Positions 2,235-24,475 of a DNA stretch of 37,403 nt are shown here, one piece after another; within the stretch, counting starts at the first letter, position 1, and each line of letters starts with the position of its first letter. The translations under genes and the position numbers were made by a program. The stretch comes from an uncultured virus (IMG/VR IMGVR_UViG_3300050343_000259) (Duplodnaviria > Heunggongvirae > Uroviricota > Caudoviricetes): the IMG/VR virus record IMGVR_UViG_3300050343_000259; one strand, written 5' to 3'. Under the pieces are notes generated by a model. That model saw nothing but the letters and a program-made list of their open reading frames with translations. It searched no databases and had not been told where the DNA came from.

Positions 2235-3821
2235 CTACTTTAATGTTGTTAACTTCTTTAAGTTTTTATCAATCAATTTTTGTATTGACTCTGCCCTAAA
2301 TGAATTAATTCGTTTTTCATCTGATGTTACACTAGCATCTAAATTTTCTAAACTTACTTTTAATTGATTATAAAGATAGTCCAAACTAAAATTAACTTTT
2401 AGTGATTCATCTGACTTTAATTTTTTGACTTTTCCTCCTTTTTTCATACGAGATTTTGCTCTAACTCTATCTGCTTTGCCCGATGAAATAGCACCAAAGT
2501 ATCTTTTCTGTTTATCAGTTAATTTCTTTCCATTTGCAATACCATCATCTAGTATTTGTTTAGCTTTTGTAGGTGTAAGCCCTCCTTTTTTAAACTTTCC
2601 TTCGTTGTCAATATAATATAAATCTCCTTCATATTCAAAACCTATAGCTTCTTGACCCCATTTTCTAGCCCATTCTTTTACTTTAGAAACTACTTTTGCT
2701 TCATTCTTACTCCAATCCTTTTCATTAGCAAATACTGATACTTTAACTATATCTTCTTCTATTATTTCTCCTGACTGAGATTTGTAACCTCCATCTGTTT
2801 CGGTTTCAGTATATCCACCAAATTCATTAGCTACATAATTTTCCACTTCTTTGACTCTGCTTTCTAACTCCTCCTCAGATATTTTATCTCCTACATTAGA
2901 TGTAGATGGAACATAAATAACAAAATTCTTATCAAATTTAAATTCTTTTGACAAGGCACCACCTCTCTCATAAGGACTTGATACCCAAAGTTCTCCGCCT
3001 TTTTCCATCTTCAATTCCTTTTCATCTACCTTAGCTGCTTTACCTCCCATTACCGCACTATATACTCTAGCTTGAGCCCATTGCTCTTTTGATTTAACAT
3101 TAGGTCTAACACTTGATGGATTAGTTTTATAGGCTCCTATGCCTTTATTGTATATTTTTTGAATTCCTTTTTTTGAAACACCGGTATCTTCTGCTATATC
3201 CGATAATGAATTTGATGCATCTAAATCATTTCCATACTTTTTATTATATTTTTCTTTCCAAGTCTTTGCCTCTTTGGTCTTACCACCTTTTTTAAATTCA
3301 GTTGGCTTATTAGGATAACGAGCAGGAATTAAATATCTATCTCTTGTTAGTTCTCTATCAACACTATCTGCTCCGCCCCAATTAGTTTTAGAGTCTTGTA
3401 TGTATTTGTCTACTGCAACTCTTATTTCTTGTAATGAAAATCCACCATCATAGTCTTTAGCATAGATTCCTTTATTCCCATAAAAGTCATTCATATAATT
3501 TTCAAAATATTCTCTTTCACTAAAAGGTATATAGCCGCCTTCAGCAAATTCTTTTTTCTCAAATTCTTCCTCTAAAACATCCGGATTTTTACAATGATAA
3601 TTGATGTGCTCTGCATACTCATCTAAAGTTACTTTTCCATCATCATTTAAATCGAAATGTTCGTGTAATTCATCTTTAGTTATGTCGTTAGGATTTTCGG
3701 GAAAATCTTCTTCAACTTTACTGTTTTTCTTATCAAATATTTCAGCATAAGAATTATAATTGCCTTTTTCTCTTTCACTATTTCTTATAGCTAATAGTTT
3801 TTTCTTTTTTTCTCTATCCAT
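2235..3821 (-). CDS. Modular (polyvalent-like) protein with six xxxGG-delimited units: EF-hand-like loop, DUF5824-like module, DUF3574-like module
   Basis: Motifs FAEGG, FKKGG, MEKGG, YERGG, FKKGG, MKKGG; EF-hand-like DLNDDGKVTLDE; IYNKGIGAYKTNPSSVRP..WAQARVYS (DUF5824-like, from memory); FGGYT..GGY..GEIIEE..GQEAI module. Confidence 0.8.
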   Translation of the reverse strand: MDREKKKKLLAIRNSEREKGNYNSYAEIFDKKNSKVEEDFPENPNDITKDELHEHFDLNDDGKVTLDEYAEHINYHCKNPDVLEEEFEKKEFAEGGYIPFSEREYFENYMNDFYGNKGIYAKDYDGGFSLQEIRVAVDKYIQDSKTNWGGADSVDRELTRDRYLIPARYPNKPTEFKKGGKTKEAKTWKEKYNKKYGNDLDASNSLSDIAEDTGVSKKGIQKIYNKGIGAYKTNPSSVRPNVKSKEQWAQARVYSAVMGGKAAKVDEKELKMEKGGELWVSSPYERGGALSKEFKFDKNFVIYVPSTSNVGDKISEEELESRVKEVENYVANEFGGYTETETDGGYKSQSGEIIEEDIVKVSVFANEKDWSKNEAKVVSKVKEWARKWGQEAIGFEYEGDLYYIDNEGKFKKGGLTPTKAKQILDDGIANGKKLTDKQKRYFGAISSGKADRVRAKSRMKKGGKVKKLKSDESLKVNFSLDYLYNQLKVSLENLDASVTSDEKRINSFRAESIQKLIDKNLKKLTTLK

Positions 3822-3824
3822 AAC

Positions 3825-6800
3825 CTATAATACTTTTTTCATTTTTTCAATTTCTTCCATCAATTCTTTACGCAATCCCTCATCTTTTTCTTCTTTTATC
3901 ATTGATTCAAGAATATCTATTTGTTCTGCAATTTCTTTGTCAAACTTTTTTAAATCTACTTTACCACCTTTTTCATATTCTTCTGTGTAATAATCATCTT
4001 CATCAGGGTCGTATAATGTATTGCCTTCATATTTTTCAATCAAATCTTCTACTTCACTTTTAGTTAAATCATCTACATCATAATATCCCATTATCTCCGT
4101 AAATTCTATATCATCTCCTTTTATTTCAATACCTTCTTCTAAATTATTCCGGTCTACCTCCAACATAGCGAAACTTACACTCACCTCCCCATAATTATCT
4201 GTATCAAACACTCTACCACCTTTTTCAAATTGTTTATTATACTCTTCGGCTCTTTTTTCAATTTTATTTTTTATTACAATTGGAGCCTTTTCATAAGTAA
4301 TTGTTTTACCCCAATGGCTTATGTCAGCAGGAAATTCTGCTCTGTTTCCTGCATACATATCTATACTCATATTTGGCATAGTATGATGGTTCATTTCATA
4401 TACATCTCCGTGCATTACTATAGTATAATCTCCATCCAAGCCTTGATATATGTCTACTTCATTCATATCTAGCTTTCCTCCATCTTCAAGTAATCTTGCT
4501 CCACTATTGTCAGATTTAACAAAAGAACTACCAACACTTTTTCCTGAAGTAGATTTGATTTGATTTATAAACTCCTGTAATTCTGCTTCACTTAACTCAA
4601 AAGTATTTACATTCCTATTCATCATATCTGAAGCTAAGTGCCAACTTGTATTTCCTGATTTGCTTAAAATACCTTTTCCGGTAGGCAAGTGTATCTCTCC
4701 AAATTTCTTGTCACTTTGAATTCTAATTTTATCAGTTTTCTCAGTAATTGGATATACTATAAAATCTTGTGGCTTTCTCATACCTTTAACCTTTAGGTCA
4801 AAAGATGTGGTTCCCATTATATTTTTCTTATAGTTTGTTATTGGTGAATCAGTTTCTCCCCCTTTTGCATAAGGTACTGCTTTAGTTTTTCCTGCTCTTG
4901 CGAACTCTAAATCTTCTTCATCTTCCACTACACTTATATCTCCTGTATCTCCAAAATAAACATAGTCATTAATATTTATTTCTTCATCTTCTCTTAATTC
5001 ATATTTATCTCCAAAACTATCTGTTATAACTTCGCCACCTTTTTCAAATGGCTTCATTACTACTCTTTCTCCCAAAGGATAAGTATCGTTTACTCTATAA
5101 ACAGTATCAATTAGCAAGTCTTTAGGATTTTCTCCTTTTGGTCGTACTCTATCAATTTCAACTAATCCTACCCCATCTTCTTTGAATTTATTCTTTCCCC
5201 ATTCAATAGCTTCTTTTTCACTAGCAAATCTTTTAGAATCTCCATATTTTAAATTATGTCTGTGCTCTAAAGCTACTGCATTGTAGTGAGGTGTAACTCC
5301 ACCTTTTGCGTAGTAATTTTCAATTTCAATTTTTTCAACTTCTTCTAAAGGCAACATTCTCCAAGTGCTTTCATCAAAACCTTTCATTGTAGCAACAGAA
5401 TCCTTTTCGTATGAAGAACCTTGATAAATATATTTAATACCTTGATTATCATAAACAACAACATCATCCCCATTATCGAGTGCATTGTCAAATTTATCCA
5501 ATTCTTTTATAGATATTTTACCACCTTTTGCGTAGGCAGTTACCATTGGATATTCTCCTTTGTATGAGTCATCAGCTATTTCATAGAGATATTCTCCATC
5601 TTTAGATACTTCAACATACCAAGTTCTTTTAAATTTACTTTTTGCTAATTCTATAATAGATTTTGGTGTGCTATTTTTAGGAATATCAATATCTCCTAAT
5701 AAAACTGCTCCGCCTGTATCATCACCTTTAAATCCAACAACTTCTCCTTTGTAAGTTAAATTTTTGTCTATGGTACCTCCCTTTGCATAGTTTTTAGAAA
5801 TATTTCCTTTAGTTTTTATCTTAGAATAGGTTTTTCCTAAATCAATTAATTCATCATACTTTTTATTTGCCTCTTCTAATGTTGCATATTGCCAAACCTC
5901 TTGATTTTTACCCGGTCCTTGTCTGCTTATGCCATACTTATAATTTCCTTTATACTTTAATCCATCTTGATTTCTTAAAGGGTTTAGTTTTACTAAATTA
6001 AATATCCATCCATCTTCAAAGTTGGTATATCTTAACAATGGACTTATATTGGTTCTTCTTACAGAGCCACCTTTTGCATATTTATTTTTCCATTTATTAT
6101 TGGCAGTTTTTATATAATCTTCCTTGATGGCTATTTCTTCAAAATTATCATCATCAACATTATATCCGTGTTGTTCAAAATGTTCTTTCAAATCTTCATC
6201 AGTATATCTAACTCTTTGGTCATAAGTATATTTAGGGTTTTTTATTCTGCCACCCTCTGCGTAGGTAGAACCGCCTTTTGCATAATCTTTTATAGCCTTG
6301 TCTAGTGAAAGAAAAACAACATTGGCACTTGCTCTATTAAACTTTGGATTTTTGTCATCATAATCGCTATTTAAATCATTATCCTCAGACATAAAATAAA
6401 CTCTGCCGTTTTTAATATTTATTTTTACTAATGGCATTTCACCACTAACCATATTATCCGTTTGAACTCTTGCTAACATTTCTCCATCATTTAGAGGAAT
6501 ATGTGAGTAAAATTTTTCATCATAATCATCTAGTTTATACAAATAATAATCTCCAATATATTTTTTATCTATCTTGTGAGCAAAGGCTCCAAAAGATTTT
6601 TGACCATTAGATGATTTTTTGCTTTCCCAAATTTTTCTTGAAGAAGTATTATCTTTTAAGTCTGTAAATATTACTTCTCCTCCTTTTGCCATTTTCTCAA
6701 TATCTCCAATTAAATAACTTCCTTTTTCTCCTGAAAATTCTACTTGGTCTTTTTTGTTTTTTGATATGTCAGTAACTTTCATTGTAGTTCCGCTATCTTT

Positions 6801-7361
6801 TATTTTTACTTTATCACCTTCATATATAGCACCACCTTTAGCAAAGAATAAACTATTATCTACCTTGATGTCAGAGAATTTTATATTATCTAAATTTTCT
6901 TGTGAAACCTGTTTTATTTCTATTGGTTTTGTTTCAATTTGTTCTACGGTTTCTTCAAACTCTTCAGCCGGAGGAGAATCTGCACCTGATGGATTGTAGC
7001 GGCTCTCTAAATCTTGTTCTTCTACAGTTTCTACAAACTCTTCAGCCGGAGGAGAATCTGCACCTGATGGATTGTAACGGCTCTCTAAATCTTGTTCTTC
7101 TACAGTTTCTACAAACTCTTCAGCCGGAGGAGAATCTGCACCTGATGGATTGTAACGGCTCTCTAAATCTTGTTCTACAGGAGCATCAGTATTGAGTTCA
7201 CTCAAAGCCGCATTAATTTTAATTATTTCTTGAGCATTTTTATCATACATCATTTTATAATCACGGTCATCAAGGTCCTCTTCAAACATTTCTTGTTGCT
7301 CGTTTAAATCCTCTAAGATTTCTAATAAATCTTCTTCTGTTTTATTGGTGTAATCTTCCAT
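3825..7361 (-). CDS. 1178-aa modular protein with 13 (Y/F/M/L)xxGG motifs separating unrelated units; candidate polyprotein
   Basis: FAKGG, MAKGG, YAKGG x6, YAEGG, FEKGG x2, LEDGG, YEKGG; acidic N-terminus containing a 26-aa tandem repeat. Confidence 0.85.
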   Translation of the reverse strand: MEDYTNKTEEDLLEILEDLNEQQEMFEEDLDDRDYKMMYDKNAQEIIKINAALSELNTDAPVEQDLESRYNPSGADSPPAEEFVETVEEQDLESRYNPSGADSPPAEEFVETVEEQDLESRYNPSGADSPPAEEFEETVEQIETKPIEIKQVSQENLDNIKFSDIKVDNSLFFAKGGAIYEGDKVKIKDSGTTMKVTDISKNKKDQVEFSGEKGSYLIGDIEKMAKGGEVIFTDLKDNTSSRKIWESKKSSNGQKSFGAFAHKIDKKYIGDYYLYKLDDYDEKFYSHIPLNDGEMLARVQTDNMVSGEMPLVKINIKNGRVYFMSEDNDLNSDYDDKNPKFNRASANVVFLSLDKAIKDYAKGGSTYAEGGRIKNPKYTYDQRVRYTDEDLKEHFEQHGYNVDDDNFEEIAIKEDYIKTANNKWKNKYAKGGSVRRTNISPLLRYTNFEDGWIFNLVKLNPLRNQDGLKYKGNYKYGISRQGPGKNQEVWQYATLEEANKKYDELIDLGKTYSKIKTKGNISKNYAKGGTIDKNLTYKGEVVGFKGDDTGGAVLLGDIDIPKNSTPKSIIELAKSKFKRTWYVEVSKDGEYLYEIADDSYKGEYPMVTAYAKGGKISIKELDKFDNALDNGDDVVVYDNQGIKYIYQGSSYEKDSVATMKGFDESTWRMLPLEEVEKIEIENYYAKGGVTPHYNAVALEHRHNLKYGDSKRFASEKEAIEWGKNKFKEDGVGLVEIDRVRPKGENPKDLLIDTVYRVNDTYPLGERVVMKPFEKGGEVITDSFGDKYELREDEEININDYVYFGDTGDISVVEDEEDLEFARAGKTKAVPYAKGGETDSPITNYKKNIMGTTSFDLKVKGMRKPQDFIVYPITEKTDKIRIQSDKKFGEIHLPTGKGILSKSGNTSWHLASDMMNRNVNTFELSEAELQEFINQIKSTSGKSVGSSFVKSDNSGARLLEDGGKLDMNEVDIYQGLDGDYTIVMHGDVYEMNHHTMPNMSIDMYAGNRAEFPADISHWGKTITYEKAPIVIKNKIEKRAEEYNKQFEKGGRVFDTDNYGEVSVSFAMLEVDRNNLEEGIEIKGDDIEFTEIMGYYDVDDLTKSEVEDLIEKYEGNTLYDPDEDDYYTEEYEKGGKVDLKKFDKEIAEQIDILESMIKEEKDEGLRKELMEEIEKMKKVL
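6942..7175. repeat. Three near-identical 78-bp tandem repeats (EQDLESRYNPSGADSPPAEEFVETVE)
   Basis: Units start at 6942, 7020 and 7098; in-frame within 3825..7361. Confidence 0.95.
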
Positions 7362-9600: not shown

Positions 9601-12600
9601 TTATTTTACTCTTATTTTTAATAATGGCATAGACCTATTAAAATTTTCAATTAATGTTTCAAGATTATCGCCTCTATTTTTTGAGTTCGCCTCTTGAATT
9701 TCCTTCTCTACTACTCTTCTTTTTTCTTTCCACTTTTTCTCGCTATCTAATTCTTGTTGACCTTCGATTATTTTATTAGATGCACTACTTATTAATTCAT
9801 CAATATCGTAGATAGAATAATTCTCCTTTGTTTTTTCATCTTTTACTTGATTCTCAATTAAGTAGTAATAGTTCGACATAATACTTTCATTTTCAGAACC
9901 TGTTACAAATTCATTTACTCTTCTTACCAAAGCATCATAAGTAAAGCCTTTTTTGCCTGTTTGATTTCCAAAAATTACTTTAACAATTTGCTTTCCTAAA
10001 GAAGATTCCTCGGTTGTCCTTGACATTTCTAAATTTTGCTCATCAGGTTCTAAATCAAGAATAGTTTGAATTTCTCCTTTTCTTGCCCTAATCATTCTTC
10101 TTACTTTATCAGCTACTTCATTAACCTCTGTCATTTGTGATGAGGAGTTTAGGTATATATCTTGATTTTCTAATATTATATTATTATTATCAATTTCTTT
10201 TTGAATAATATCAATTGCATCACTCATAGAAACCGGAACAAATTTATTCTCTTCTTTCCAAGCACTTCCTCTTCCTCTACTATCTACTTGATACTCATAT
10301 TGTTTTTGAATATCTAATCTTGTCTTTTCTTTGTCAGCTAACATTCTAATCTCTCTGTCTATCACTAATTTGTATAGTTTATTCATAGTGAAAACATATC
10401 TATCATAAGAGGTTTTAACCTCACCATAATTGTTTTTAATGGTATTTAATTTACCTTTTATATCAGAATATCTTGAAACCTTTGCGTTCAATTCATCAAC
10501 TTTATCTTGCCAAGCTAAATCAGTTAATTGGTCAATATCAGAGATTATGTTTCTAATTCTTTCTTTAGCATTTATAGTGTATTGTGTTTTATTTAATTCA
10601 TAAACACCCTGCTCTAGCATTACTTTAATTTCATTAATCTTCGTTTGAAGTTTTGAATAAATAAATGCATCTATGCTATCTCTACCAAGAACATATACTA
10701 TTCGTACAAACTCCCACATATTTCCTTGCCTCCAAATTCTACCCTCTAATTGCATAGCATTAGATGGAGAAAAATCACTATCTAAAACATATAAAGTATG
10801 TGCCCTTTTGTTCAAATCAATTCCTTCCTTAATAGCAGATGAACCTATTAGTATTTTTATTCTTCCATCATTAAACTTATCTCTAATATCCTCTCTAGTT
10901 CCAATTTTTTTCTTATCACCATTTTCATCTAACATTACATTATTAAATTTGTCAGTAGCATCAACAGTTTTTGACATACCTCCTGTAATAATTCCTATTT
11001 GGTCTTTAGTGATAACCTTTTCCTTTTCTTCAATATTATCGTAGTATTTTACATTTCTATCTACTATATATGTTTCAATCATTTCATATAAATTATAGTA
11101 GTTACCACCATACTTCATACTTTTTCCTTTATTAACATAAATTATTTGACCACCGACCTGTTTGTCATTGGCAATAGATTTAGAGTCGTTAGTAATAGTG
11201 TTAATAGCACATTCGATTGCATACTTTATTTTAGGGCTATTTTCCACAAAGTTTTTAGCTGATTTAGACTTGTCATCCGGATATAATGGAAAGTCTTTTA
11301 AAAGGTCATTAGGAGTGTTTCCTGACTTATCACATTTAAGTAAATAAGGAGAGATAACACATAGTTGACCAAATCCTTGCCCTACTATTGCTCTAGCTAA
11401 TCTTACTTCGTTTTTGCTATTTACAGTTAAGTCTATATCTTGATAATTACTATCGTATAAACTCTCTTCATCTGCCATATCTTTAAGTGTTTCAGGCTCA
11501 AACAATGCCTTGTCTACTTTAGATTGTTTACTAGCAATTCTTCCATCTTCAGGATATTTTTCTCTTAATTCTACTAATATTTTTCTTGCGTTATGAAATA
11601 ATTCTATCCACTCATTACTTTCTTGCTCTTCTTCTTTTGCTTTTTTAAGAATTGCATTTACTTCTTCTATTGACTCTTCTACTTCTTCATTAGCATAAGT
11701 TATCAAGCCTGTTTCTTCTTCAACTTTTATTGCCTCTCCATAATTAGGACAGTATTCAAATGGAATATCAATTTTCCCCTCAACATATTCTGCTATTTTC
11801 TTTAGAATTTGTTTTTGAACATCACTTAATTCAATATAACTAGAAACATTTTGAAGTTCAGGTGCCCATTGAACAGATGATGTATTTGCACCTGCTTGAA
11901 AACCTCCATCAGCCCCATCTTGAGGTATAATATACTTTAGTGGTCTTGTAGCTTCTATAATCTTATCAGATACCTTAAAGTTAGCCATAGACTTAATAAA
12001 GTTAGCCATAGCTGCACTATTATAATAGCTTTTAATTTCAGGAAATAATCCAAAAGTTTGTCTGTGAGTAATGTTATATCTCCACTCTTCTTTTACAAAT
12101 GTTACAAAGAAGTCCCAAACAGACATAATGTTACTATCTTTCATCTTTTCAAGATTAGTCATACCAAATACAGAAAACATTTGAAATATATTATCTGTAA
12201 AAGGAGTAGCAGACATTAGTATCGTATTGTTAACATTTTGATTCTCTTCTTTAGATTGAATTTGAAATACTAAAGCCATTAAATTAGATGGAGCAGTAGT
12301 TAAACTTCCCTTACCTGATGAATAATACTTTAATCTATAAGCTGCTTGAGCCTCGTATTTTTCTGTTTTTATATTTCTTTTAAAAGGATGATGGTAGTTA
12401 GTATTATCTTCTATCTGAAGTCCTTGAGTAGAGTTTATATTCTCTCCATCCGGTAAAAATTTAAGAGCCGCACTTGCACTCATTGTTGGTAATATGTGGA
12501 AGTCCTTGTCAACCTTTTTCTGACCACCCCTTAATGGTGCAACATTGGAAAGCATATGCTCTCTTGGCTTACTAATAAGATTATTGAAATTATGTATTTC

Positions 12601-15600
12601 ATCTACACAAATCCCATCAATATTTAATTTTCTTAATGATAAAGGTTGATTTGCTAAATTATCAAAGAACCTGTTAGTGCTCTTATTAACATATCTTACA
12701 TCTTCTACATTTTGAACATACATCTTAGCCTTTTCTCTAGCTTTTGAAGTAGCACGGAATTGTTTAATAGCTTGATGAGAACAAAGCACAATTTTATTTG
12801 GTTTTAAAACTTCAGGTCTGTAGATGCCTAATACATCAATTAACATACCTTCAATCTTTTTTAATAAAGCCGTAACTTTTCCTGTATTCTTACTACCTAT
12901 AGGATTAAAGAACTCTAAACCTACTTTGTTTTCAAGTGATTTAATTTTACTAACTCCTATTTCTGTCAATGCACCTTCCCATTCTGTATTTAAGGCTTTT
13001 GTTTCAGAAACAATTTTATCATACTGTGCTTGAGTAATCACACCATCTTTAAGTGCATCCGAAGGATTATCTATCCACCCTTTTTGTGGATATGAACTTT
13101 GTGCAATAGCATAGTTTTCTATATTCTTATTTGCTTTAGGGTCTGCTTTTTTCCACCATTCTTGTATTGACTGTGGATATTCTTTTATTTTCAGTTTTTT
13201 ATCGCCTGTAAAGTCCTGATAAGTATATCTATATCCCGTTTTAATTCTTTCAAATTCACTATCTACTTGTGCAATATTATAATCAATTAACCTTTTGATT
13301 TTATTAATTATTTCTTCACTTGCCTCTTGTATTGGTCCATCATCAAATAGCTGAGGTATTTTTGTAGGTAAGTAATCAAATAAGAACTCTTCATACCATT
13401 CTTCTGCACTTGACTTTATAGAGGTTTCAGAAAATCTTCCTCCTTCTACTTTTCCATTACTAAACTTAATAATTGGTAAAGTGTCCTCCGGTAAAAATGT
13501 GGCTCTACCTGCCGGTAAGTTTGATATTTGTTTTTTTACTTCAGCTAAAACACCCTCGCCTTTTCTTCCATTCCAAGCATCTATAATTTGCAATTCTTCC
13601 TCATTATATTCTTTTAAGCCTTGTTTATCTTTAGTTCCAAATAATATTTTTTGAGAACCATTTCCAAACATTACTACATTAACCGCATCTTTATTGTTTT
13701 CTCTTTTGTTCTTTTCAATTACTTGCCAATTTGATAGTAAGCCTAAAACACCTGTTGTATCTCTACCAATAATTTCATCAGCAAATTTTTCATAAACTTG
13801 ATTAGGAGTAAATACAATTGTTCTTTTGCTTTCTCCTGTCAAAATCATATGTGACATCATTGCAATAGAAGTAGTTGTTTTACCAAATCCTACCTCGTGA
13901 GCCAATAGACCTGCGTTTTTGTTAGCAACGGAAAATTTCATTCCCTCAACTTGTGCTTCTCGTAAATTAAATAAGAAAGGTCTTGGCATTTTACCAAACC
14001 ATCTTGAGTGCTCTACAAATATTGGAAATTTTGTATAGTCTGAAATTGCCATATTATTGTATGTAGAGTTCCATAGTTTCTCCAAATAAATACGATAATC
14101 AGGCTTTAATTGTGTTTTACAAAATGCGGTAAATAATGTATTACCTTCAACAATAATATCACTTTCAAGTTTTTTGTATTTGTCTGTAATTACATTATAA
14201 ATTCTTTTTGCTTCCTCCTCAGTTATTGGAGTAAACATTTGCTTAACTGTAATTGTATTTTCTCTGTCTTTTGGGTCTGCAATTTTTAACTCAACTTCTA
14301 CTTTAGGTTTATCTTCTACTAAACCTACTTTTATAAGATTCTCTCTACTTTGCTGAGTTAAGTTGCTAAATTGATAACGGTCACTCTTTTTATATAAATT
14401 ACTTCTTGTAAATGTTTTTTGACTCTTTACTAATTCAGGAATAAATTCTAAGGGTGCCTTTATGTTACTACCATCTTCAATTATTTTTTCAAATTTTGGA
14501 AGAATATGTTTCGTTATGAATTGTGCGGATGGAATAGGAAAAACATATCCCTCTATCAATAAAAACTCATTCTGCTTTAAGAACGGGTTGCTTATAAAAT
14601 CAATGCCTTTTCCGAACATTATCCATTCATAAAATTTCTTTAAGTGATTATTAGTTAAGTTAAGAGGGTTGTTTCTCTTAAACTCATCATAGGCAGTTTG
14701 TCTTGAAGAACCTCCTATTTTAATTGGGTTATACATATTATCCCCTTGCTCTACAGTAGATATTTTTACTTTTCCATCTCTGAAAACACCATAACCTTTT
14801 CCAATTCTACCAACAAAACCATCATCACTAGCAAAGAATATAGGATTATGAACATTTACAATAAGATTTTTATTTGGGTCTTTATCTCCAAATGAAAGAG
14901 GCTCAGGTATTGCTTTTTCAAGAATTGCAAATTGATTGTCTATAATTATGTTTCCTTTATTCTCTCCGTAATATTTTCTTATATTATCTGATAATTCTCC
15001 TTGTAGTTTATTAAGTTTTTTATAAACATCTCCCGATACATATTCATAACTGTATGAATACTTTCTATTTGTTACTTGACCTGAACCAATAGCAATATCA
15101 AATTCTTCAATACAAATGTGTCCTTCTTGTAATAGTATTGGAAACAGTTTTTTTGAAAAAACAAAATAATCAATACCTAAAATTCTTTGACATAATTTTC
15201 TGAAATAACTAGAATTATCTCTTGAACTTCCTCCTTTTGTAACAAAATAAGCCAACACTTCTTTGATTGTCATATTTTGATTATTCTTCCAAAAAGTTTC
15301 TCTTACATCATATATGTAAAAATAATCAGGATTACTCCATTGAAAATTTCCATCTTTGTTTTTATAATACTTGCCCTCAGATGCATCAAGTGACCATTTT
15401 GGATTCTTTTTGTTTTGCCAAACTAAATTAAATTTTCCTGACTTATCCTTAATTTGAACTTGTTCAGCATAAGTATAAATGTATGATGTTATACTTTTTA
15501 AAAGTAATTTGTAAAAAAGTTCACCATCTTGAATATCAATAAGTTTAGATTGTCTTTGAATTGATTCTTCTAATCCCTCTGATTCTTCAATAACATTCTC

Positions 15601-17028
15601 AGCTAATAAAACAGGTCTTACATCTTGTTCTTCAAATAATAATGTCTTTTGCTGAATTGATAATGATGGCTTAAAAAGTTCAGCATAAATTATGTGTTCA
15701 GAGTTAGATAAGAAATCAGAAGAAATTCCTTTGCAATATCCATACTGCTCTGCGTTCTTATTTACAAAATAAGCCTCATTTTTATTTTCATTAAAATAAA
15801 TATCTATTATATCTTCTTTGTTATCTCCATAAGTAGCACAAGACAAAGCAAAAAATAAATCGTTTGACCTAACATTAATAAATGATTCGTTTTGTTTATC
15901 AAAATATAATTTAGATGATATTGCATATTGACCTCTTTCTTTTTTAAAGATATTATTAGAGGCATCGTAAAAGTTTCTACTAATACAACTAAAAGGCATT
16001 ACATTTTGCAAAATTTCTTTACCTCTTATTCCTGTAACCTTTGTGTATTTTTCATTAACCGGAAGAGATTCAACTAAATCTGTTTGCTTTTGTATTTTTT
16101 CTAAATCTTTTTCGGTGCAACTAGCTTTATCTGAAATTTGCATTAATGATATATCACTTGCTTCTTTATTAATTGTGTCTTTAGTAAAGAAACCTGTAAA
16201 ATAAGATTGGTCTGTAGATGATTCTAAAGAAAGTGGAGAGCAATTGTAGTCGTATTCTTCAGTTAATTGTAAAGATTTAGAAATATAGGTTTTTGCATTT
16301 TTTATGTAGCCTCTTGCTCTTGTTAACTTATAATCTAACTTTATACTATCATTGTCATTATTGACAACTATCTGAAAATATTTTCCTGTATTTGCAGCCG
16401 TAGAATCGGTAAATTTAAGATTTACAGGCGATAAGGCTATTGCCATTTCTTTGATTTCCTGAATTCCAAGTGCTTCACCTGTGTAATCTATATAATGCTT
16501 GTAAGTTCCTGTATTTATGGAGTTTATAATTCCATATGGTAAAGATTCAAAATTTAAATTAGTGTATATTTTATCATAAGTTGATGGTCTTTCACCTAAA
16601 GTTTGAAATGTAGTGTTTAGTACACTATAATTTATAAGGTTGGCAAGAGCATCAACCAAAAATTCATATTGTGCATTAGTATATAACTTATCAATTAATT
16701 TTCTCACATCAGGGTCTTTTTTACCCTCCTCTGTTAAAATTCTTGCTTTAAAATATTCCGACTTTTGCTTTCCTTTTAAGTTGGATTCTATTTTTAAGTC
16801 TTTCCAATATTGTGTGTTAATTCCAAAATCTGCTTTTACAAGTCCTTCTGTTGAGAATCTAGTATTTGTATCTACAAAAGGGCTACAATTACCATATAAA
16901 AATCTAGGGTTTCTTGAAACATACTTAGCTATGACATACATATCTTCGTTTTTCAACAAAGTATTATACTCAACCTCTTTATTTAGATTCTCTACTATTT
17001 CGCTTATGTAATTTAATATTCTTGCCAT
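9601..17028 (-). CDS. Giant SNF2/SF2 helicase, DarB/polyvalent-protein type, with no recognisable methyltransferase domain
   Basis: Motif I LLAHEVGFGKT, II VDEIHNF, III LMSATP, V LIGSSAIKEGIDL, VI QLEGRIWRQGN; family-typical EYVSGDVYKKL and SIDAFIYSKLQTK. Confidence 0.9.
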   Translation of the reverse strand: MARILNYISEIVENLNKEVEYNTLLKNEDMYVIAKYVSRNPRFLYGNCSPFVDTNTRFSTEGLVKADFGINTQYWKDLKIESNLKGKQKSEYFKARILTEEGKKDPDVRKLIDKLYTNAQYEFLVDALANLINYSVLNTTFQTLGERPSTYDKIYTNLNFESLPYGIINSINTGTYKHYIDYTGEALGIQEIKEMAIALSPVNLKFTDSTAANTGKYFQIVVNNDNDSIKLDYKLTRARGYIKNAKTYISKSLQLTEEYDYNCSPLSLESSTDQSYFTGFFTKDTINKEASDISLMQISDKASCTEKDLEKIQKQTDLVESLPVNEKYTKVTGIRGKEILQNVMPFSCISRNFYDASNNIFKKERGQYAISSKLYFDKQNESFINVRSNDLFFALSCATYGDNKEDIIDIYFNENKNEAYFVNKNAEQYGYCKGISSDFLSNSEHIIYAELFKPSLSIQQKTLLFEEQDVRPVLLAENVIEESEGLEESIQRQSKLIDIQDGELFYKLLLKSITSYIYTYAEQVQIKDKSGKFNLVWQNKKNPKWSLDASEGKYYKNKDGNFQWSNPDYFYIYDVRETFWKNNQNMTIKEVLAYFVTKGGSSRDNSSYFRKLCQRILGIDYFVFSKKLFPILLQEGHICIEEFDIAIGSGQVTNRKYSYSYEYVSGDVYKKLNKLQGELSDNIRKYYGENKGNIIIDNQFAILEKAIPEPLSFGDKDPNKNLIVNVHNPIFFASDDGFVGRIGKGYGVFRDGKVKISTVEQGDNMYNPIKIGGSSRQTAYDEFKRNNPLNLTNNHLKKFYEWIMFGKGIDFISNPFLKQNEFLLIEGYVFPIPSAQFITKHILPKFEKIIEDGSNIKAPLEFIPELVKSQKTFTRSNLYKKSDRYQFSNLTQQSRENLIKVGLVEDKPKVEVELKIADPKDRENTITVKQMFTPITEEEAKRIYNVITDKYKKLESDIIVEGNTLFTAFCKTQLKPDYRIYLEKLWNSTYNNMAISDYTKFPIFVEHSRWFGKMPRPFLFNLREAQVEGMKFSVANKNAGLLAHEVGFGKTTTSIAMMSHMILTGESKRTIVFTPNQVYEKFADEIIGRDTTGVLGLLSNWQVIEKNKRENNKDAVNVVMFGNGSQKILFGTKDKQGLKEYNEEELQIIDAWNGRKGEGVLAEVKKQISNLPAGRATFLPEDTLPIIKFSNGKVEGGRFSETSIKSSAEEWYEEFLFDYLPTKIPQLFDDGPIQEASEEIINKIKRLIDYNIAQVDSEFERIKTGYRYTYQDFTGDKKLKIKEYPQSIQEWWKKADPKANKNIENYAIAQSSYPQKGWIDNPSDALKDGVITQAQYDKIVSETKALNTEWEGALTEIGVSKIKSLENKVGLEFFNPIGSKNTGKVTALLKKIEGMLIDVLGIYRPEVLKPNKIVLCSHQAIKQFRATSKAREKAKMYVQNVEDVRYVNKSTNRFFDNLANQPLSLRKLNIDGICVDEIHNFNNLISKPREHMLSNVAPLRGGQKKVDKDFHILPTMSASAALKFLPDGENINSTQGLQIEDNTNYHHPFKRNIKTEKYEAQAAYRLKYYSSGKGSLTTAPSNLMALVFQIQSKEENQNVNNTILMSATPFTDNIFQMFSVFGMTNLEKMKDSNIMSVWDFFVTFVKEEWRYNITHRQTFGLFPEIKSYYNSAAMANFIKSMANFKVSDKIIEATRPLKYIIPQDGADGGFQAGANTSSVQWAPELQNVSSYIELSDVQKQILKKIAEYVEGKIDIPFEYCPNYGEAIKVEEETGLITYANEEVEESIEEVNAILKKAKEEEQESNEWIELFHNARKILVELREKYPEDGRIASKQSKVDKALFEPETLKDMADEESLYDSNYQDIDLTVNSKNEVRLARAIVGQGFGQLCVISPYLLKCDKSGNTPNDLLKDFPLYPDDKSKSAKNFVENSPKIKYAIECAINTITNDSKSIANDKQVGGQIIYVNKGKSMKYGGNYYNLYEMIETYIVDRNVKYYDNIEEKEKVITKDQIGIITGGMSKTVDATDKFNNVMLDENGDKKKIGTREDIRDKFNDGRIKILIGSSAIKEGIDLNKRAHTLYVLDSDFSPSNAMQLEGRIWRQGNMWEFVRIVYVLGRDSIDAFIYSKLQTKINEIKVMLEQGVYELNKTQYTINAKERIRNIISDIDQLTDLAWQDKVDELNAKVSRYSDIKGKLNTIKNNYGEVKTSYDRYVFTMNKLYKLVIDREIRMLADKEKTRLDIQKQYEYQVDSRGRGSAWKEENKFVPVSMSDAIDIIQKEIDNNNIILENQDIYLNSSSQMTEVNEVADKVRRMIRARKGEIQTILDLEPDEQNLEMSRTTEESSLGKQIVKVIFGNQTGKKGFTYDALVRRVNEFVTGSENESIMSNYYYLIENQVKDEKTKENYSIYDIDELISSASNKIIEGQQELDSEKKWKEKRRVVEKEIQEANSKNRGDNLETLIENFNRSMPLLKIRVK

Positions 17029-18745: not shown

Positions 18746-19798
18746 TTATTTTTCTGATTTGACCATATCTATATAAACTTCTTTAATGTTTGCATCACTT
18801 CTGACCCAAGGTGCTCTTTCTTCAAGGATTTTTCTGCTTCCTTTTGCCGTTACCCATATTTGTTTAGTAGGTCCATACTTTTTATAATCTGCGAACTCAC
18901 TTCCTCCTATGAACATATCACTAAAGAAAATTACGCACATTTCATAATCAGGATTTTCTTTTTGTTTTGTTCTTTCTATATCTCCTAATTTTCTAAATGC
19001 TCCATTAAATGATGTACCACCACCACCGTGATAAATAATTCTTTTATCTACATCTTTTAAAGGCTCCTCTGCATTTGGAACACCAAATTTCGGGTCTTTA
19101 TCATAATCGTACATACTACAACTATCACATACCCACATTTGCCCTGAATACTTTTTAGCTAAATCAGGTATGAATTGAGATAAAAGTTCTAAAAACGATA
19201 CTCCTGCTTCTGTATAGCTTCCCATACTTCCGGATTGGTCTAACAAAACAATAACCTCTTTGTCATCATCTATTACTTTTGACTTTGCCTTTCTAAATAC
19301 TGCAATACCTTGAGAAATATATGTTTGGGCTCCTTCATAATCTATGTTTTTTCTTCCCATTTTAGGTAAGCCTATTAACTCTCCTATTCCTGCTTCTATT
19401 TTACTAAACCACTCAGGCTCTCCTCCTTCACTTTCAGGAACTGCCATACTACCTATTTCTCCACCTTTTCCTTCTCCTATTGCATCAGGAGGTAGTATAT
19501 ACTCTCCATCAGGAAATTTTATTTTGTTGCTTAAAATCTCAGCTTTTATTTCACTAACATTAAACTCTGCCTCTCTAATATCTTTTAAGTCTTGAGCAGT
19601 TAATTGTTCGTTTTCATTAAAAGCATTTTTTTCAATTGAACCACAAGAATCAGGCATATCTGCCGTAATGGGATTAAGTATCTTATTTTGGGCTTTTATA
19701 TCATCTTTTAGCCTACCAACAAGACCTTCAAGATTTTCATTTAATCCTGAAATAATATCATTATATTTTTCTTCTTTTTGCTTGTAATTCATTACCAT
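18746..19798 (-). CDS. VWA-domain protein (DUF2201 C-terminal-like)
   Basis: MIDAS motif VLLDQSGSM, GGGGTSF, IFFSDM. Confidence 0.85.
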   Translation of the reverse strand: MVMNYKQKEEKYNDIISGLNENLEGLVGRLKDDIKAQNKILNPITADMPDSCGSIEKNAFNENEQLTAQDLKDIREAEFNVSEIKAEILSNKIKFPDGEYILPPDAIGEGKGGEIGSMAVPESEGGEPEWFSKIEAGIGELIGLPKMGRKNIDYEGAQTYISQGIAVFRKAKSKVIDDDKEVIVLLDQSGSMGSYTEAGVSFLELLSQFIPDLAKKYSGQMWVCDSCSMYDYDKDPKFGVPNAEEPLKDVDKRIIYHGGGGTSFNGAFRKLGDIERTKQKENPDYEMCVIFFSDMFIGGSEFADYKKYGPTKQIWVTAKGSRKILEERAPWVRSDANIKEVYIDMVKSEK

Positions 19799-20007
19799 TT
19801 ATTTTGGGGACAATGTTGTCCTCTTAATGCAGTTTTTGCTTTTAAAATACACCCACAAGTTAGTTGTCTACCACTTCTGTCGTATTCAGGTCTTAATAAA
19901 GTTCCACAAGTTAGTCCAACTCCAAAAGTCTGTTTTGAATAGGGACATCTTGCACAGATATTTAACCTGTCTTGTGCCGTTAATTCTCTAGGTGTGTTAT
20001 TCCACAT
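19792..20007 (-). CDS. Small Cys-rich (zinc-binding) phage protein
   Basis: RLNICARCP...CG...CGCILKAKT...CPQNKW, a pattern common in phage small proteins. Confidence 0.75.
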   Translation of the reverse strand: MWNNTPRELTAQDRLNICARCPYSKQTFGVGLTCGTLLRPEYDRSGRQLTCGCILKAKTALRGQHCPQNKW

Positions 20008-20012
20008 ACTAA

Positions 20013-21596
20013 TTATTGTTTTAATTCTTCTAACTCTTCTAATGCAACATCTATATACATCATCTCTTCTTGTGTCAACTTATCTTTATGCTTTAGCTTA
20101 ATACTATTAAAATTGTCTATTGACTTATTAATGTTTTTTGTTAAGTTGATGTCTTTTATTTTTTCCTCTAAATCTTCTTTTCTTTTTGTTTGTTCTTCTG
20201 TCCAATCAGGAATATCATTAGCATCAAAATCTGAATCTTCCTCTTTTTCATTTTCTCCTTTTCCCTCTGCCTCTCCTTCTCCTTCTCCTTCTGCTTTTCC
20301 TTCTCCCTCTTCTTCGTTTACTTTGCTATCTCCTTCATTTTTATCTTGTTCCGTGTCTGATTGTGAACCTGAGCCTGAGCCATCTTCTTCATCCTCATCT
20401 TCATCCTCGCTTAACTCATCTGACCACACACCATCTCCTTGATTGTTTCCATCTACTCCTCCATTGAGTAAATCCTCAAGTATTTCTTCTTTTTCTTTGA
20501 TTATTTCTTCCGGAGTTTTGTTTTCATCTCCACTATCTCCACCTTCTCCATCTCCGCTTTCTCCACCTTCTGAATCTCCACCTTCTGAATCTCCACTTTC
20601 TCCATCATCATCATCATCTCCTCCTGAATCTCCTCCTTGACCTTCATCTTCACCATCATCTCCATACTCTCCTTGTTGTCCTTCTTCTTCAGGGATAGCT
20701 GATATTATTTGTGATTTAGTAAATACACCAAGTAAATCTCCGCTTGTCGTAAGCTGCATTCTTGATTCTTTTACTGCATCCATTAAAGAATTGAATTCTT
20801 CTTCACTTATACTTTCTACAACATAATTTCCCTCTTCATCTATATCTACTATTTTTCCGGGGTCGCCATTGTAAGGGGATTCGTTTGTGTCAATTATTAC
20901 ATAATCTCCTATTTCAAAATCTTTTGGCTCTTGTTTATCTTGTTCTTGGTCTTTATCGTTTTCTTGCTTTTGTCTTTTATTAGCTTTATTGAATTTATTA
21001 GCTATAATCCACCACTCAGGTATGTAAGGGTTATCCGCATCGTAAGGCAAATCAATCTTACCAAATTGTTCTTCAGGAACTAAAAGAGATTGGTCTTTAT
21101 CCTTAAAATTCATACACTTATAAACCTCTAACAATCCGCTTCTACTTAGTTGGTCATTAATTCTGATGTCCATACAACAATTAGCATTACGAACATCGCT
21201 AAAAGGCATTGTAAGTAAGCAATCTCCTCTTAATATATGACCCATTTCGTGTCTAAAAGCTGCTTTCATAGCAGGTTCCCAATAGCACATATATTTAGTA
21301 AATGTTGGATAGCCTATATAAAATCTTTTTTTCTTTCTTGAATATGCTGAGTAAAAAGTAGTAGCTTTTGGGTCATAGTAAAGCAATATATCATTTGGTA
21401 TCATTCCTGCTTCTCTAATCAAATCATCAAGAACACCTAATCTAAAATTATCAGAAATTCTTTTCAGATTTTGTGTAATTCTAGCTGAACTGTTTTTTAA
21501 TGCCTGAAATTTAAATTCACCAATATCATCTTTAGCACTTTGCATATAAAAGTCCCAAAACTTACTCCAATCAGTATAATATTTATGTTCTGACAT
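20013..21596 (-). CDS. Zincin metallopeptidase-like protein (DUF2201 N-terminal-like) with KOW/SH3-like domain and long acidic linker
   Basis: FRHEMGHIL (HExxH) followed by ANCCMDIRIN (NxxxDxxIN); FEIGDYVII..GKIVDID; D/E/G-rich tract at about 20200-20690. Confidence 0.82.
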   Translation of the reverse strand: MSEHKYYTDWSKFWDFYMQSAKDDIGEFKFQALKNSSARITQNLKRISDNFRLGVLDDLIREAGMIPNDILLYYDPKATTFYSAYSRKKKRFYIGYPTFTKYMCYWEPAMKAAFRHEMGHILRGDCLLTMPFSDVRNANCCMDIRINDQLSRSGLLEVYKCMNFKDKDQSLLVPEEQFGKIDLPYDADNPYIPEWWIIANKFNKANKRQKQENDKDQEQDKQEPKDFEIGDYVIIDTNESPYNGDPGKIVDIDEEGNYVVESISEEEFNSLMDAVKESRMQLTTSGDLLGVFTKSQIISAIPEEEGQQGEYGDDGEDEGQGGDSGGDDDDDGESGDSEGGDSEGGESGDGEGGDSGDENKTPEEIIKEKEEILEDLLNGGVDGNNQGDGVWSDELSEDEDEDEEDGSGSGSQSDTEQDKNEGDSKVNEEEGEGKAEGEGEGEAEGKGENEKEEDSDFDANDIPDWTEEQTKRKEDLEEKIKDINLTKNINKSIDNFNSIKLKHKDKLTQEEMMYIDVALEELEELKQ

Positions 21597-23881
21597 TATA
21601 ACTTTTCAATTAATTCTTTTAATCTTACTCCATTTCCTGACTCTTTCATTCTTTCATTCAAACTACCTTCATAGAACCTAGTAAGTATTGATTTAACTCT
21701 AGGGTTTTTAAAGAAATTCATTACTTTTTCTGATTCCCCTCCTTTTTTACTTTCTTGTAAAAACTTGATATATTTTTCGTTGTCTGCTAAAGTTGAATCA
21801 AAAAATGATGCAAAAGCACCCATAAAGTAATATCTAATATAAAGGCTTAAAGAAAGTGAGTTTTCATAATTGTTTAGTCCGTATAATCCACTTTGCTCTT
21901 GACTTTTTCTTTGAGCAGGTTTCATTCCTCTTAATTTCGATTTAGTTTCGCCATACATCATTTTTTCTGTCTGTTCGGCATCTACTTTAAGAGTATGTGT
22001 TTCAATTTCTCCTTCTTTATTTAAGAACTTTTCAAAAAAGTTATTTACTTCTAAAATTTGCTTTGTAAATAAATCAGAGTCTATTTGAGTATCTCCTCTA
22101 AGATTTATCATTATTTGCTGATATATAAAAGGAATCATTTTATCTCCTACATTTGCTAATTGGTCATAATTTCCTGCTTGATTTTCGTTAGATGCTTGAA
22201 TATATGATAATGCATTTAATGTCCAAGAAGTTAGCTTTGATGGGTTTCCATTAGTTTGAGCATAGCTATTTGACAACTCTAATTGAAGATAATTGAAGTA
22301 ATCCTTTTGATAATCTTTAAATGATAGTGCAATTTCGTTTCTCAATCTCATTACAGGACTTATATTTCCACCGCCTACTTTTGATGCTCCTGCTAATGAT
22401 GCCCCAAAACTTTCCTCATCACTCTCAGTATATAATTCTTCAGCTAAACATAGCCATAATGCACCTAAACTTTCATAATAGTTTTTTAATCCGGGGTCAC
22501 TTTTATAATTTGACTTTCCTCCAAGATAATTATCTCTCCAAATCATTCCCCAAGCAGTATCATTAAAAACCTTATCATCATTTGACAAAAGCCTTACTGC
22601 TGATGACATATCTCCTCTTGCCTTTCCTAATATTTTTTGAAAATATGAACTAAAATTTTGATAAAAATAATTTCCACTTCTATCTCTTTGATTTAGCATT
22701 TTTGGTAAAAAGCTATATTGCCATTGTAAGTTAACTTCATCAAGAAAAGCTACTTTCTTTAGTAGCAATGAAACATCCATATCATTAGGACCAAATTTAT
22801 CTACACAATCCATTACTTTGGTTGCATTTTTATCCGGTGGATATAATGCCATTGTGCTTCTCATAATTATTTGACAAAATCTTCTAAATAGTGCTTCCTC
22901 AATATCTTTAGTGGCATTTGCTATTCCAACTATTCTACAATCCATTAAAGGCAATCCTTTAGATACTTGAGAACGAACTAAATCTGCCATATTACGATAA
23001 TCTCCATAATCAACATCTAATGGAATTGGCATTCCCTTTTTGTTGTTTATTTCTTTCATTGTCCAACTTTTCAATGTTCTTTCACGAACAATATGTAACA
23101 ATGGTGCATATTTTTCTTTTTCGTGTTCACTTACCTTATCTAACTCATCAAGTATTAACCAATAATTACCATACCCTAAAATGGTACACAAATACATACA
23201 TAAGTCCCGTATGTCATCTCTTCCTGCTTCTAACGCATCTAAAGTGTACTCGTATGCAGTTTCTGCCTGTACTGCCGTTTCAGGGCTTCTTTTGAACACA
23301 AATTCTTTTGAATTCAATATTTCACGAGTAGTAGCATTAGATAAATTGTTTCTTGGATTATCTACCAACTGAACACTAATTTCTTGTTCGCCTTCAGGAT
23401 AATCTAATTCCATCAATGCTAGTAATATTTGATGAAGTATTTTATATGAATAAGAAAATTTTGTTTGAGGCTTATCATAAACCTTTATGTAGTTGTCAAA
23501 AATTGTTTGACCATTTGCTACTTGTGTAGAAATTGTACTACTATTTGGAAACCAATAAGGTTTTAAGAATTTTAGAATATCTTCTCCTGTTCTTATTTTT
23601 TTACCCTCACTATCTCTTTCTGTATCGTAATCTTTACTAATTAATTTTGCTAATCCTTCTATGTTTTCAGGCTTTTCTGAACCAATGTAAAGCATAGATG
23701 AAGGAAGCCTCCATTTTTCTGTAATTTGTAATAAAGTATAAGACTTACCAATTGATGATTTTCCTACAATTAAAACAGGTATATCATATCTTACGAGTTG
23801 TAAAATAGTTTTTAGTGTTTCGGTTCCTATTTTATCTTTTTCAACTCTTAATTTTTGTATTTCATTATTATCCCGTGCCAT
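21596..23881 (-). CDS. MoxR/dynein-related AAA+ ATPase
   Basis: Walker A VLIVGKSSIGKS, Walker B LILDELD, sensor 1 IANA, arginine finger ALFRRF. Confidence 0.85.
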   Translation of the reverse strand: MARDNNEIQKLRVEKDKIGTETLKTILQLVRYDIPVLIVGKSSIGKSYTLLQITEKWRLPSSMLYIGSEKPENIEGLAKLISKDYDTERDSEGKKIRTGEDILKFLKPYWFPNSSTISTQVANGQTIFDNYIKVYDKPQTKFSYSYKILHQILLALMELDYPEGEQEISVQLVDNPRNNLSNATTREILNSKEFVFKRSPETAVQAETAYEYTLDALEAGRDDIRDLCMYLCTILGYGNYWLILDELDKVSEHEKEKYAPLLHIVRERTLKSWTMKEINNKKGMPIPLDVDYGDYRNMADLVRSQVSKGLPLMDCRIVGIANATKDIEEALFRRFCQIIMRSTMALYPPDKNATKVMDCVDKFGPNDMDVSLLLKKVAFLDEVNLQWQYSFLPKMLNQRDRSGNYFYQNFSSYFQKILGKARGDMSSAVRLLSNDDKVFNDTAWGMIWRDNYLGGKSNYKSDPGLKNYYESLGALWLCLAEELYTESDEESFGASLAGASKVGGGNISPVMRLRNEIALSFKDYQKDYFNYLQLELSNSYAQTNGNPSKLTSWTLNALSYIQASNENQAGNYDQLANVGDKMIPFIYQQIMINLRGDTQIDSDLFTKQILEVNNFFEKFLNKEGEIETHTLKVDAEQTEKMMYGETKSKLRGMKPAQRKSQEQSGLYGLNNYENSLSLSLYIRYYFMGAFASFFDSTLADNEKYIKFLQESKKGGESEKVMNFFKNPRVKSILTRFYEGSLNERMKESGNGVRLKELIEKL

Positions 23882-23884
23882 AAT

Positions 23885-24475
23885 TTATTTTCTTATTATT
23901 AATTTCTCACAACTATCATTCAATTCACTTATTTCAAGCATTGATGCCATACATTCATCATCTAAGCACTCTATATTAATAATAGCCCCATCTTTTTTTG
24001 ATGCATCAATTACCGCTTGAGTGTAATATTTGTATGTATGAGTGTTGGAAAAATCTTTATCTAACTTAAATTTATTTATGTTTAATAAATTAGAATTTTT
24101 GTAATTGGGTTTTGTATTTAATTGACCTATTTTTTTGTTTTCACCGCCATCATTAACATAAAAGTCATATTGCCCACAAGATTTTGCATATCTATCGCAA
24201 ACTTGAGGCTCATACATCATTCCGCCTTTTCTAAACATTGTTATTTTGGCTCCTTTGTCAAAACTTACTCCATTTCCATCAATTTCGTTTATTGCTGATG
24301 CAATTTCCCTTGGTGTTCCTTCAACTTTGAATTTTCTGTCATCAGCCATAGATTTCTTGTTGATTATGGCTTCTCCACCCTCAACTTCTATTTTTTGACC
24401 CGTAGACTTTACTGTCATTGGTATTCCACCATCTGCGTGTGATGGTCCTTCTGTAAATCCTCCTTTTGCTCTCAT
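23885..24475 (-). CDS. Phage protein with GPSHxxGGI...EVEGGE motif and two xxKGG motifs
   Basis: RAKGGFTEGPSHADGGIP..EVEGGEAIINK..ASAINE resembles a motif seen in virion/tape-measure-associated phage proteins; FRKGG precedes an unrelated C-terminal half. Confidence 0.7.
   Translation of the reverse strand: MRAKGGFTEGPSHADGGIPMTVKSTGQKIEVEGGEAIINKKSMADDRKFKVEGTPREIASAINEIDGNGVSFDKGAKITMFRKGGMMYEPQVCDRYAKSCGQYDFYVNDGGENKKIGQLNTKPNYKNSNLLNINKFKLDKDFSNTHTYKYYTQAVIDASKKDGAIINIECLDDECMASMLEISELNDSCEKLIIRK

Follow-up and report, generated by a model that had tools for sequence, protein, structure and literature searches.

Polyvalent proteins are regarded as the weapons that a phage injects first. 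In polymorphic toxins a short conserved peptide marks the exchange point of variable modules, as VENN does in CdiA and DPxGL in Rhs, and Gly-Gly stands at the boundaries of released units at adenovirus protease sites, in pp220 and pp62 of African swine fever virus, at the LxGG sites of coronavirus PLpro, in polyubiquitin and in double-glycine leaders; the cut motifs of giant-phage prohead proteases, for their part, end in Glu. Here we describe a gene in a 37,403-nucleotide stretch of DNA (hereafter the window) from an uncultured marine virus recorded as Caudoviricetes (IMG/VR record IMGVR_UViG_3300050343_000259), whose 528-amino-acid (aa) product, P0001, consists of small, independently occurring modules joined at every joint by one short Gly-Gly peptide. 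Whereas CdiA and Rhs toxins have a single junction, from carrier to toxin tip, arrays of the P0001 type have up to 16 junctions between equal cassettes; and whereas precursors cut at Gly-Gly carry a hydrophobic residue at P4, the P0001 motif carries it at P5.

The polyvalent proteins of Iyer et al. 2017 (PMC5512222), for which that paper predicts processing by zincins, resemble P0001 in joining many unrelated domains in one polypeptide and in adjoining a DarB-like helicase; the words 'glycine' and 'linker' do not occur in its text, and as far as our searches reach, a universal junction motif forms no part of the published description. The tape-measure protein pb2 of phage T5 is cut after R1127 (Linares et al. 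2023, PMC10038345, whose passages on pb2 do not name the protease responsible), and the T5 record reads FVPR/AEGGMMY at this point (slash, cut). This site, x-A-E-G-G-x-M, looks like the P0001 motif, and the cut there detaches an enzyme domain from the remainder of a protein of the particle. In the head and ejection proteins of giant phages, according to PMC5694885 and PMC10052503, one prohead protease (T4 gp21; phiKZ and SPN3US gp245) cuts at a shared short motif during maturation; those substrates lose propeptides and, unlike P0001, are not arrays of swappable modules, and their protease is an identified assemblin-like serine enzyme.

We assign P0001 to the polyvalent proteins of Iyer et al. 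2017, a class of effectors delivered by phages, and by analogy with that class it is presumably injected. Five or six independently recurring modules share its single chain, and its relatives fuse them to ART-PolyVal, Zeta toxin, RelA/SpoT, GNAT, RadC, DNA-ligase/WGR and sliding-clamp domains (PF18760, PF06414, PF04607, PF13508 and PF04002 are present in module-sharing relatives). A methylase-helicase dyad of the DarB type also lies nearby: the DarB-like helicase encoded two genes upstream of P0001, in a gene order kept in 6 loci, is a 2475-aa protein (9601-17028) that matches phrog_10089 (DarB-like), phrog_62 (helicase) and phrog_11801 (methyltransferase). In Pfam searches P0001 itself revealed no recognised enzyme or signature polyvalent domain, only small modules of unknown function.

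The window is phage-like, with a GC content of about 30% and almost all genes on the minus strand. A preliminary description, made from the sequence alone, had read the open reading frame (ORF) of P0001 as a series of units bracketed by six named motifs, and all six are present (Table 1). They fit [FYM]-x-[KER]-G-G and take up 6 of the 11 GG pairs in the protein, whereas 5000 shufflings of P0001 gave a mean of 0.089 motifs and a maximum of 2. The adjacent protein P0002 holds 12 (shuffle mean 0.21, maximum 3), and when ORFs of 60 aa or more were taken from all six frames of the window, motifs were confined to these two proteins and, once, the ORF at 23885-24475. The Gly-Gly codons of the motifs vary (GGT, GGA, GGC, GGG and mixed pairs), and selection therefore acts on the peptide rather than on a nucleotide sequence. 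For this reason we rejected a signal at the DNA or RNA level, be it an internal Shine-Dalgarno-like AAAGGAGG or a recombination site, as extremely improbable: K-G-G can be written AAA GGA GG, and a few sites do read so (for example residues 459-463), but at most sites the codons are GGT, GGC or mixed, the share of GGT is higher in motifs than in genes overall, no start codon lies at a fixed distance after the motif, and the peptide is kept across genomes of 29% to 39% GC. We consider it very probable that the motif is a selected junction signal.

Table 1. Features of the P0001 gene and of related or candidate genes in the window (residue numbers refer to P0001 unless a protein is named).
Feature	Position	Strand	Remarks
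P0001, 528-aa cassette-array (polyvalent-type) protein	2235..3821	-	ORF and translation; 391 relatives with shuffled architectures
Constant N-terminal head, residues 1-91, EF-hand-like loop 57-68	3549..3821	-	kept in orthologues (segment cluster 2)
Junction motif 1, FAEGG, residues 92-96	3534..3548	-	within pLDDT<50 segment 87-103
Module YGNKGIY..DSVDRE, residues 97-175	3297..3533	-	phrog_7799; after DUF5824 in P0005
Junction motif 2, FKKGG, residues 176-180	3282..3296	-	within pLDDT<50 segment 164-182
DUF5824 module, residues 181-271	3009..3281	-	Pfam PF19141; pLDDT block means 71-89
Junction motif 3, MEKGG, residues 272-276	2994..3008	-	within pLDDT<50 segment 273-298
Spacer ELWVSSP (7 residues), then junction motif 4, YERGG (284-288); residues 277-288	2958..2993	-	
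Alpha/beta module, residues 289-409	2595..2957	-	phrog_3543, not DUF3574
Junction motif 5, FKKGG, residues 410-414	2580..2594	-	sole motif outside pLDDT<50 segments
Module LTPTKAKQILDDG..KQKRYFGAI, residues 415-458	2448..2579	-	recurs as segment cluster 6
Junction motif 6, MKKGG, residues 459-463	2433..2447	-	within pLDDT<50 segment 449-469
Constant C-terminal tail, residues 464-528, helical hairpin	2238..2432	-	kept in orthologues (segment cluster 3)
P0002, 1178-aa array, 12 strict motifs and variant LEDGG	3825..7361	-	module common with G002 ends at LEDGG
527-aa protein, N-terminal HEMGH zincin (DUF2201_N-like), acidic region	20013..21596	-	weaker candidate processing enzyme
196-aa ORF starting MRAKGG, FRKGG at residues 81-85	23885..24475	-	module also inside 1173-aa polyvalent protein of G001

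The motifs do mark the boundaries of modules. In an AlphaFold2 model of P0001 (built on 25 sequences; mean predicted local distance difference test, pLDDT, 63) folded blocks span residues 183-272, 300-410 and 470-528, and the four segments of pLDDT below 50 (87-103, 164-182, 273-298 and 449-469) hold five of the six motifs. High-scoring pairs between P0001 and its BLAST matches likewise end at motifs: 143 of 243 internal ends fall within 8 residues of one, as against 18% expected from the length covered. Comparison with Pfam envelopes, the check proposed in the preliminary description, gave a divided answer at first, since the raw DUF5824 envelope (residues 159-265) straddles the FKKGG at 176-180 and so counts against a match of motifs and boundaries as originally worded. 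The straddle is due to roughly the first 43 positions of the profile. Both the DUF5824 proteins that stand alone and the copies at the N-termini of larger proteins begin at profile position 44, equivalent to P0001 residue 186/187, and the overhang, the loosely fitting first third of the profile, therefore lies outside the domain. Across 35 relatives, which together have 235 motifs and 87 Pfam envelopes (E ≤ 1e-5; a motif counted as inside when more than 5 residues in), a motif fell inside 6 raw envelopes, all six through the DUF5824 N-terminal overhang, and inside none (0/87) once DUF5824 was trimmed to position 44, whereas 2000 trials with randomised motif positions hit a mean of 32 envelopes and never fewer than 20. 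With the trimmed core, then, the proposed agreement of motif positions with domain boundaries stands.

Most of the units named in the preliminary description correspond to families. The DUF5824-like unit was recovered by Pfam (E 4.9e-13, 49.8 bits against a cut-off of 25, over the envelope given above) and the YGNKGIY..DSVDRE unit by PHROGs (phrog_7799, E 3e-7, residues 105-162). The label DUF3574-like (PF12098) has to be given up, its 16.8 bits lying under the Pfam cut-off of 25; the unit so labelled is a real family of another name, phrog_3543 (E 3.7e-10, residues 295-408). EF-hands are usually paired. The loop DLNDDGKVTLDE in the head, which we take to fit the 12-residue EF-hand pattern, is a single copy that is kept in orthologues, so that the pattern behind the EF-hand label is present and conserved while the Pfam match itself is below threshold (E 0.1-0.33; 12.6 bits against 25.4). 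The KAKQILDDG unit had no family match in Pfam or PHROGs; together with its motif it forms a 49-residue segment (cluster 6) recurring in several relatives, and this module, listed as LTPTKAKQILDDG..KQKRYFGAI in Table 1, also forms the N-terminus of P0135. At the C-terminus, the two helices of the tail (472-496 and 500-527) are modelled at pLDDT 91-94.

Structural comparison of P0001 against the PDB by Foldseek, using the whole model, returned nothing at E ≤ 1e-3, and wide structure matches at Z of about 9 were set aside, as they come from the generic helical hairpin of the tail, for which such values are not meaningful. The alpha/beta module alone has a weak fold likeness to the T3 S-adenosylmethionine (SAM) lyase (8bb1_E, Foldseek E 0.067, probability 0.98) and resembles many small phage proteins in BFVD, with one phage SAM hydrolase among the matches. 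The T3 SAM lyase is an anti-restriction enzyme, and the likeness is a lead only.

The proposal that the units also exist as small phage proteins in their own right was borne out. A search of 5.8 billion proteins returned relatives of P0001 of similar length (391), shorter (1072) and longer (369). Among the 120 short relatives listed, 72 have no more than 120 aa and an alignment that stays within P0001 178-282; 67 of these begin their match at residue 186/187, with ends at 270/278, 71 start with M and one has a strict motif. The span of these free-standing proteins matches the interval from motif 2 to motif 3 exactly. The alpha/beta unit, similarly, has a motif-free gene of its own (118-147 aa) in three unrelated IMG/VR phages (G003 to G005).

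Within the arrays, whole cassettes change place. In an alignment of P0001 with its relatives (25 sequences, of which some 15 are full-length relatives with the same head), head and tail are constant and whole middle cassettes are present or absent between motifs. Cutting 121 proteins (120 relatives and P0002) at the motif gave 769 pieces with a median length of 80 aa, which fall into 244 clusters. Written in these clusters, P0001 reads 2-22-0-s-1-6-3; P0004 reads 2-22-0-4-s-1-6-3, with a 54-residue cassette inserted just before YERGG; P0020 reads 2-0-4-5-7-3; and P0005 reads 2-0-22-1-6-3, with DUF5824 before the YGNKGIY unit and a motif at every joint. Homologues that keep the order without the motifs had been named as the case that would speak against delimiters, and the opposite was found: in P0005 the order is swapped and the motifs are kept. 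From these sequences, relatives evidently insert, delete and permute whole cassettes at the motif. Related loci carry 2-5 motif-rich ORFs in tandem, in agreement with the proposal of a multi-gene system.

Among cultured phages the trail is short. A tblastn search of GenBank phages with P0001 matched Salinibacter and Roseobacter phages, in the DUF5824 core only, and a search of the same type for P0002 and the 761-aa ATPase of the window found nothing among cultured phages. In Roseobacter phage CRP-701, DUF5824 forms the N-terminus of a portal-adjacent 875-aa ORF that is annotated 'major capsid protein' and has no motifs; by eye, this ORF looks like a protease-capsid fusion. Two GTDB matches, in metagenome-assembled contigs labelled Gammaproteobacteria and Opitutia, were set aside as pointers to a host, being probably binned phage DNA and uninformative.

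Drawn from 1736 unique contexts, the full motif is seven residues long, [YFM]-[AEK]-K-G-G-x-[IVLT]: P5 is Y (41%), F (28%) or M (18%), P4 is A (43%), E (18%) or K (15%), P3 is K in 52%, P1' is any residue and P2' is I, V, L or T in 86%. Beside Gly-Gly, information is confined to P5, P4, P3 and P2', with none further out, which is the footprint of a site read in an extended conformation. The more distant members G012 and G021 have Asn, Asp or Gly in place of Lys at P3 and keep the hydrophobic, Gly-Gly and aliphatic residues; the motif thus drifts by lineage. Of 289 ORFs from related loci, 250 are free of the motif, and the 20 with at least 3 hold 151 motifs in 20,955 residues. Depletion of the motif from non-array ORFs, a sign of a scanning protease, was not found (24 observed against 6.5 expected, mostly truncated arrays). 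As far as our searches of the literature reach, no description of the motif was found.

The motif also occurs where it joins nothing. At least 11 ART-PolyVal proteins finish ...FKKGGYVSI-stop, other chains end ...FAKGGSTN-stop or ...YFKGGLSFLNW-stop, the single-module proteins P0131 and P0127 carry it on both flanks, and tandem motifs stand 7 to 12 residues apart (STYAEGG in P0002, ELWVSSPYERGG in P0001). A passive connector, in which a hydrophobic cap and a Gly-Gly hinge would hold intact beads on a string that fit the tail channel, would leave motifs at chain ends and tandem copies with nothing between them unaccounted for; nor need unrelated folds all have hydrophobic residues at -3 and +2 and Lys at -1. 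Short segments and linkers would suit such a string, as would the F-K-K of motif 5, modelled as a strand (E410-412) that is the last of its module; on the whole we find it improbable. In this reading the motif would persist because cassettes are copied with their flanks: cassettes do move with their flanks, but the variation of the codons argues against simple copying.

Motifs at extreme C-termini, and the modules flanked on both sides, speak for a loading or docking tag, with which the motif would bind a repeated site in capsid, scaffold or chaperone and the chain need not be cut; encapsulin cargo-loading peptides and the T4 capsid-targeting sequence are such tags. Such a tag would also suit a motif that is found almost only in cargo-type ORFs and whose P3 preference (K here, N, D or G in G012 and G021) differs in the way expected if it co-evolves with a partner. 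We nevertheless judge it rather unlikely, because 6-16 tags per chain go far beyond the need of loading and the free-standing DUF5824 and alpha/beta homologues, from other phages though they are, have no tag. Tagging is in any case compatible with later cleavage, as in the T4 targeting sequence, and the two are not exclusive.

We rank cleavage first because of the extended-form footprint, the motifs where nothing is linked, the tandem motifs and the cut in T5 pb2; we give the motif somewhat less than an even chance of being a protease cleavage site. The constant head and the C-terminal helical hairpin frame four or five small self-folding modules, each also found elsewhere, either as a gene of its own or in a different order, and the motif is exposed in disordered linkers at the joints. 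In the proposed scheme the motif would be bound in extended form by an endopeptidase that separates the array into single small proteins while the particle is loaded or later, so that one gene would deliver a changeable effector set. The cut may fall inside the motif and not after Gly-Gly: T5 cuts R/AEGG, and if this precedent applies, the bond cut would be the one before A/E-K-G-G, while for a zincin the conserved aliphatic residue would be the preferred P1'. Any motif-flanked cassette would be processed correctly, which would explain why only motif-to-motif exchanges survive.

A candidate for the enzyme is a 256-aa M48-like zincin common to G001, a complete relative of 68.8 kb with inverted terminal repeats, and G002 (E 7e-33). 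The family comprises 589 representative clusters, and H183, E184, H187 and E197 are invariant in 46 sequences. The model (pLDDT 93.9) has a beta-sandwich followed by a zincin domain; the latter is closest to M48 peptidases (BepA, Z 8.4, root-mean-square deviation 4.2 over 121 residues; 3c37, Z 6.7; Ste24, Z 6.3), although Z values of about 6-8 may reflect a common arrangement only, and Foldseek matches of the model fall mainly on its beta-sandwich domain. In 66 of 75 IMG/VR loci a small HerA-like ATPase, which the phage of the window has as well, is encoded about 6 kb upstream of the zincin gene. A YAKGG-coding pattern was carried by 14 of 20 records with the zincin, whereas reversed-pattern controls gave zero in all 25 records (G001 to G005 included); four of the six records without a match were fetched, and all four have arrays of a variant motif with N, D or G at P3.

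The window encodes a second zincin, in the 527-aa protein of Table 1, whose zincin domain has no Pfam match. Of its 30 language-model look-alikes 27 are DUF2201_N clusters (score 0.94); the protein has a long region rich in Asp, Glu, Gly and Ser and is encoded between a MoxR-like ATPase and a vWA protein. A complex prediction of its residues 1-215 and Zn with P0001 396-480 is given no weight, an unrelated chain-1 control having scored nearly as high.

Several observations weigh against cleavage. The T5 site differs from the P0001 motif in being single, in having Arg rather than an aromatic residue at P5 and in being cut before Ala; motif 5 lies in a modelled strand; and a docking tag would account for the terminal motifs no less well than a cut site does. 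In G001, Peptidase_S78 (PF04586) was missing and C48 (PF02902), C5 (PF00770) and C39 (PF03412) had no match at E ≤ 10, and scans by Pfam (G001) and PHROGs (G001 and G002) revealed no known Gly-Gly-specific or prohead protease. The co-occurrence of the M48-like zincin with the motif indicates the same virus lineage and not action on the motif. With its carbohydrate-binding-like beta-sandwich, this zincin could, as modelled, equally be a wall-degrading entry enzyme, the role described for the C-terminal peptidase of T5 pb2, and the DUF2201_N-like zincin of the window has no counterpart in G001. Mechanisms other than cleavage, tag or hinge together seem to us quite improbable.

The other genes of the region were surveyed in the window and in related loci. 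The head of P0002 (residues ~63-140, window 6900-7200) carries three tandem copies of a 26-residue acidic repeat, EQDLESRYNPSGADSPPAEEFVETVE, which precede its first junction motif. The module of the 196-aa ORF at 23885-24475, found also at G001 11355-14876 (residues ~440-540), has the pattern SHxxGGIP...E-V-E-G-G-E-x-I-I; at protein N-termini it starts MRAKGG, MAKGG or MATGG, and in other cases it lies within polyvalent proteins. The stretch FRKGGMMYEP in this module is similar to AEGGMMYPG from the cut region of T5 pb2. An OTU deubiquitinase was considered for this ORF and dropped, the match to wMelOTU (PDB phmmer, E 0.12) not being significant and the position of the catalytic His being Met; the ESM Atlas gave no usable match for it. 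Just downstream, at 18746-23881, a MoxR-like AAA ATPase (761 aa), the DUF2201_N-like zincin (527 aa) and a vWA protein (350 aa) form a trio that looks like a split DUF2201 system in a phage.

Downstream of the arrays, a separate gene at 131-1099 encodes a PAP2-family phosphatase with a tail rich in Pro, Gly, Gln and Asn; it is kept in this place in 7 loci, and some relatives have PAP2 and DUF5824 together in a single protein of 333-340 aa. Two Lys/Glu-rich proteins of 197 and 144 aa (1109-2159), probably helical, also follow the arrays and are kept in 5 to 6 related loci; by eye only, they look scaffold-like. A 270-aa HerA/FtsK-like ATPase is kept across the G001/G002 group. No terminase, portal, capsid or protease family was found in G001 (Pfam, 76 ORFs; PHROGs, 44 ORFs) or G002 (PHROGs, 49 ORFs).

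Taken together, this analysis gives a junction peptide that can serve as a parsing rule for very large proteins, most of the 244 segment clusters being without a known family, as a target for finding processing or loading machinery, and as a natural design rule for cargo arrays in phage particles. It would explain how such genes evolve by in-frame cassette exchange. A bolder reading, which we regard as possible though doubtful, is that the motif serves a programmable cargo system as an address-and-release code: any small protein with the motif on its flanks would enter the particle within an array and be freed by a dedicated, so far unrecognised peptidase, perhaps the M48-like zincin, so that a single gene would deliver an exchangeable mixture of effectors. 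If true, this would be the counterpart, in a bacterial virus, of eukaryotic-virus polyproteins and of polyubiquitin, and such a code would appear to be widespread in uncultured marine phages.

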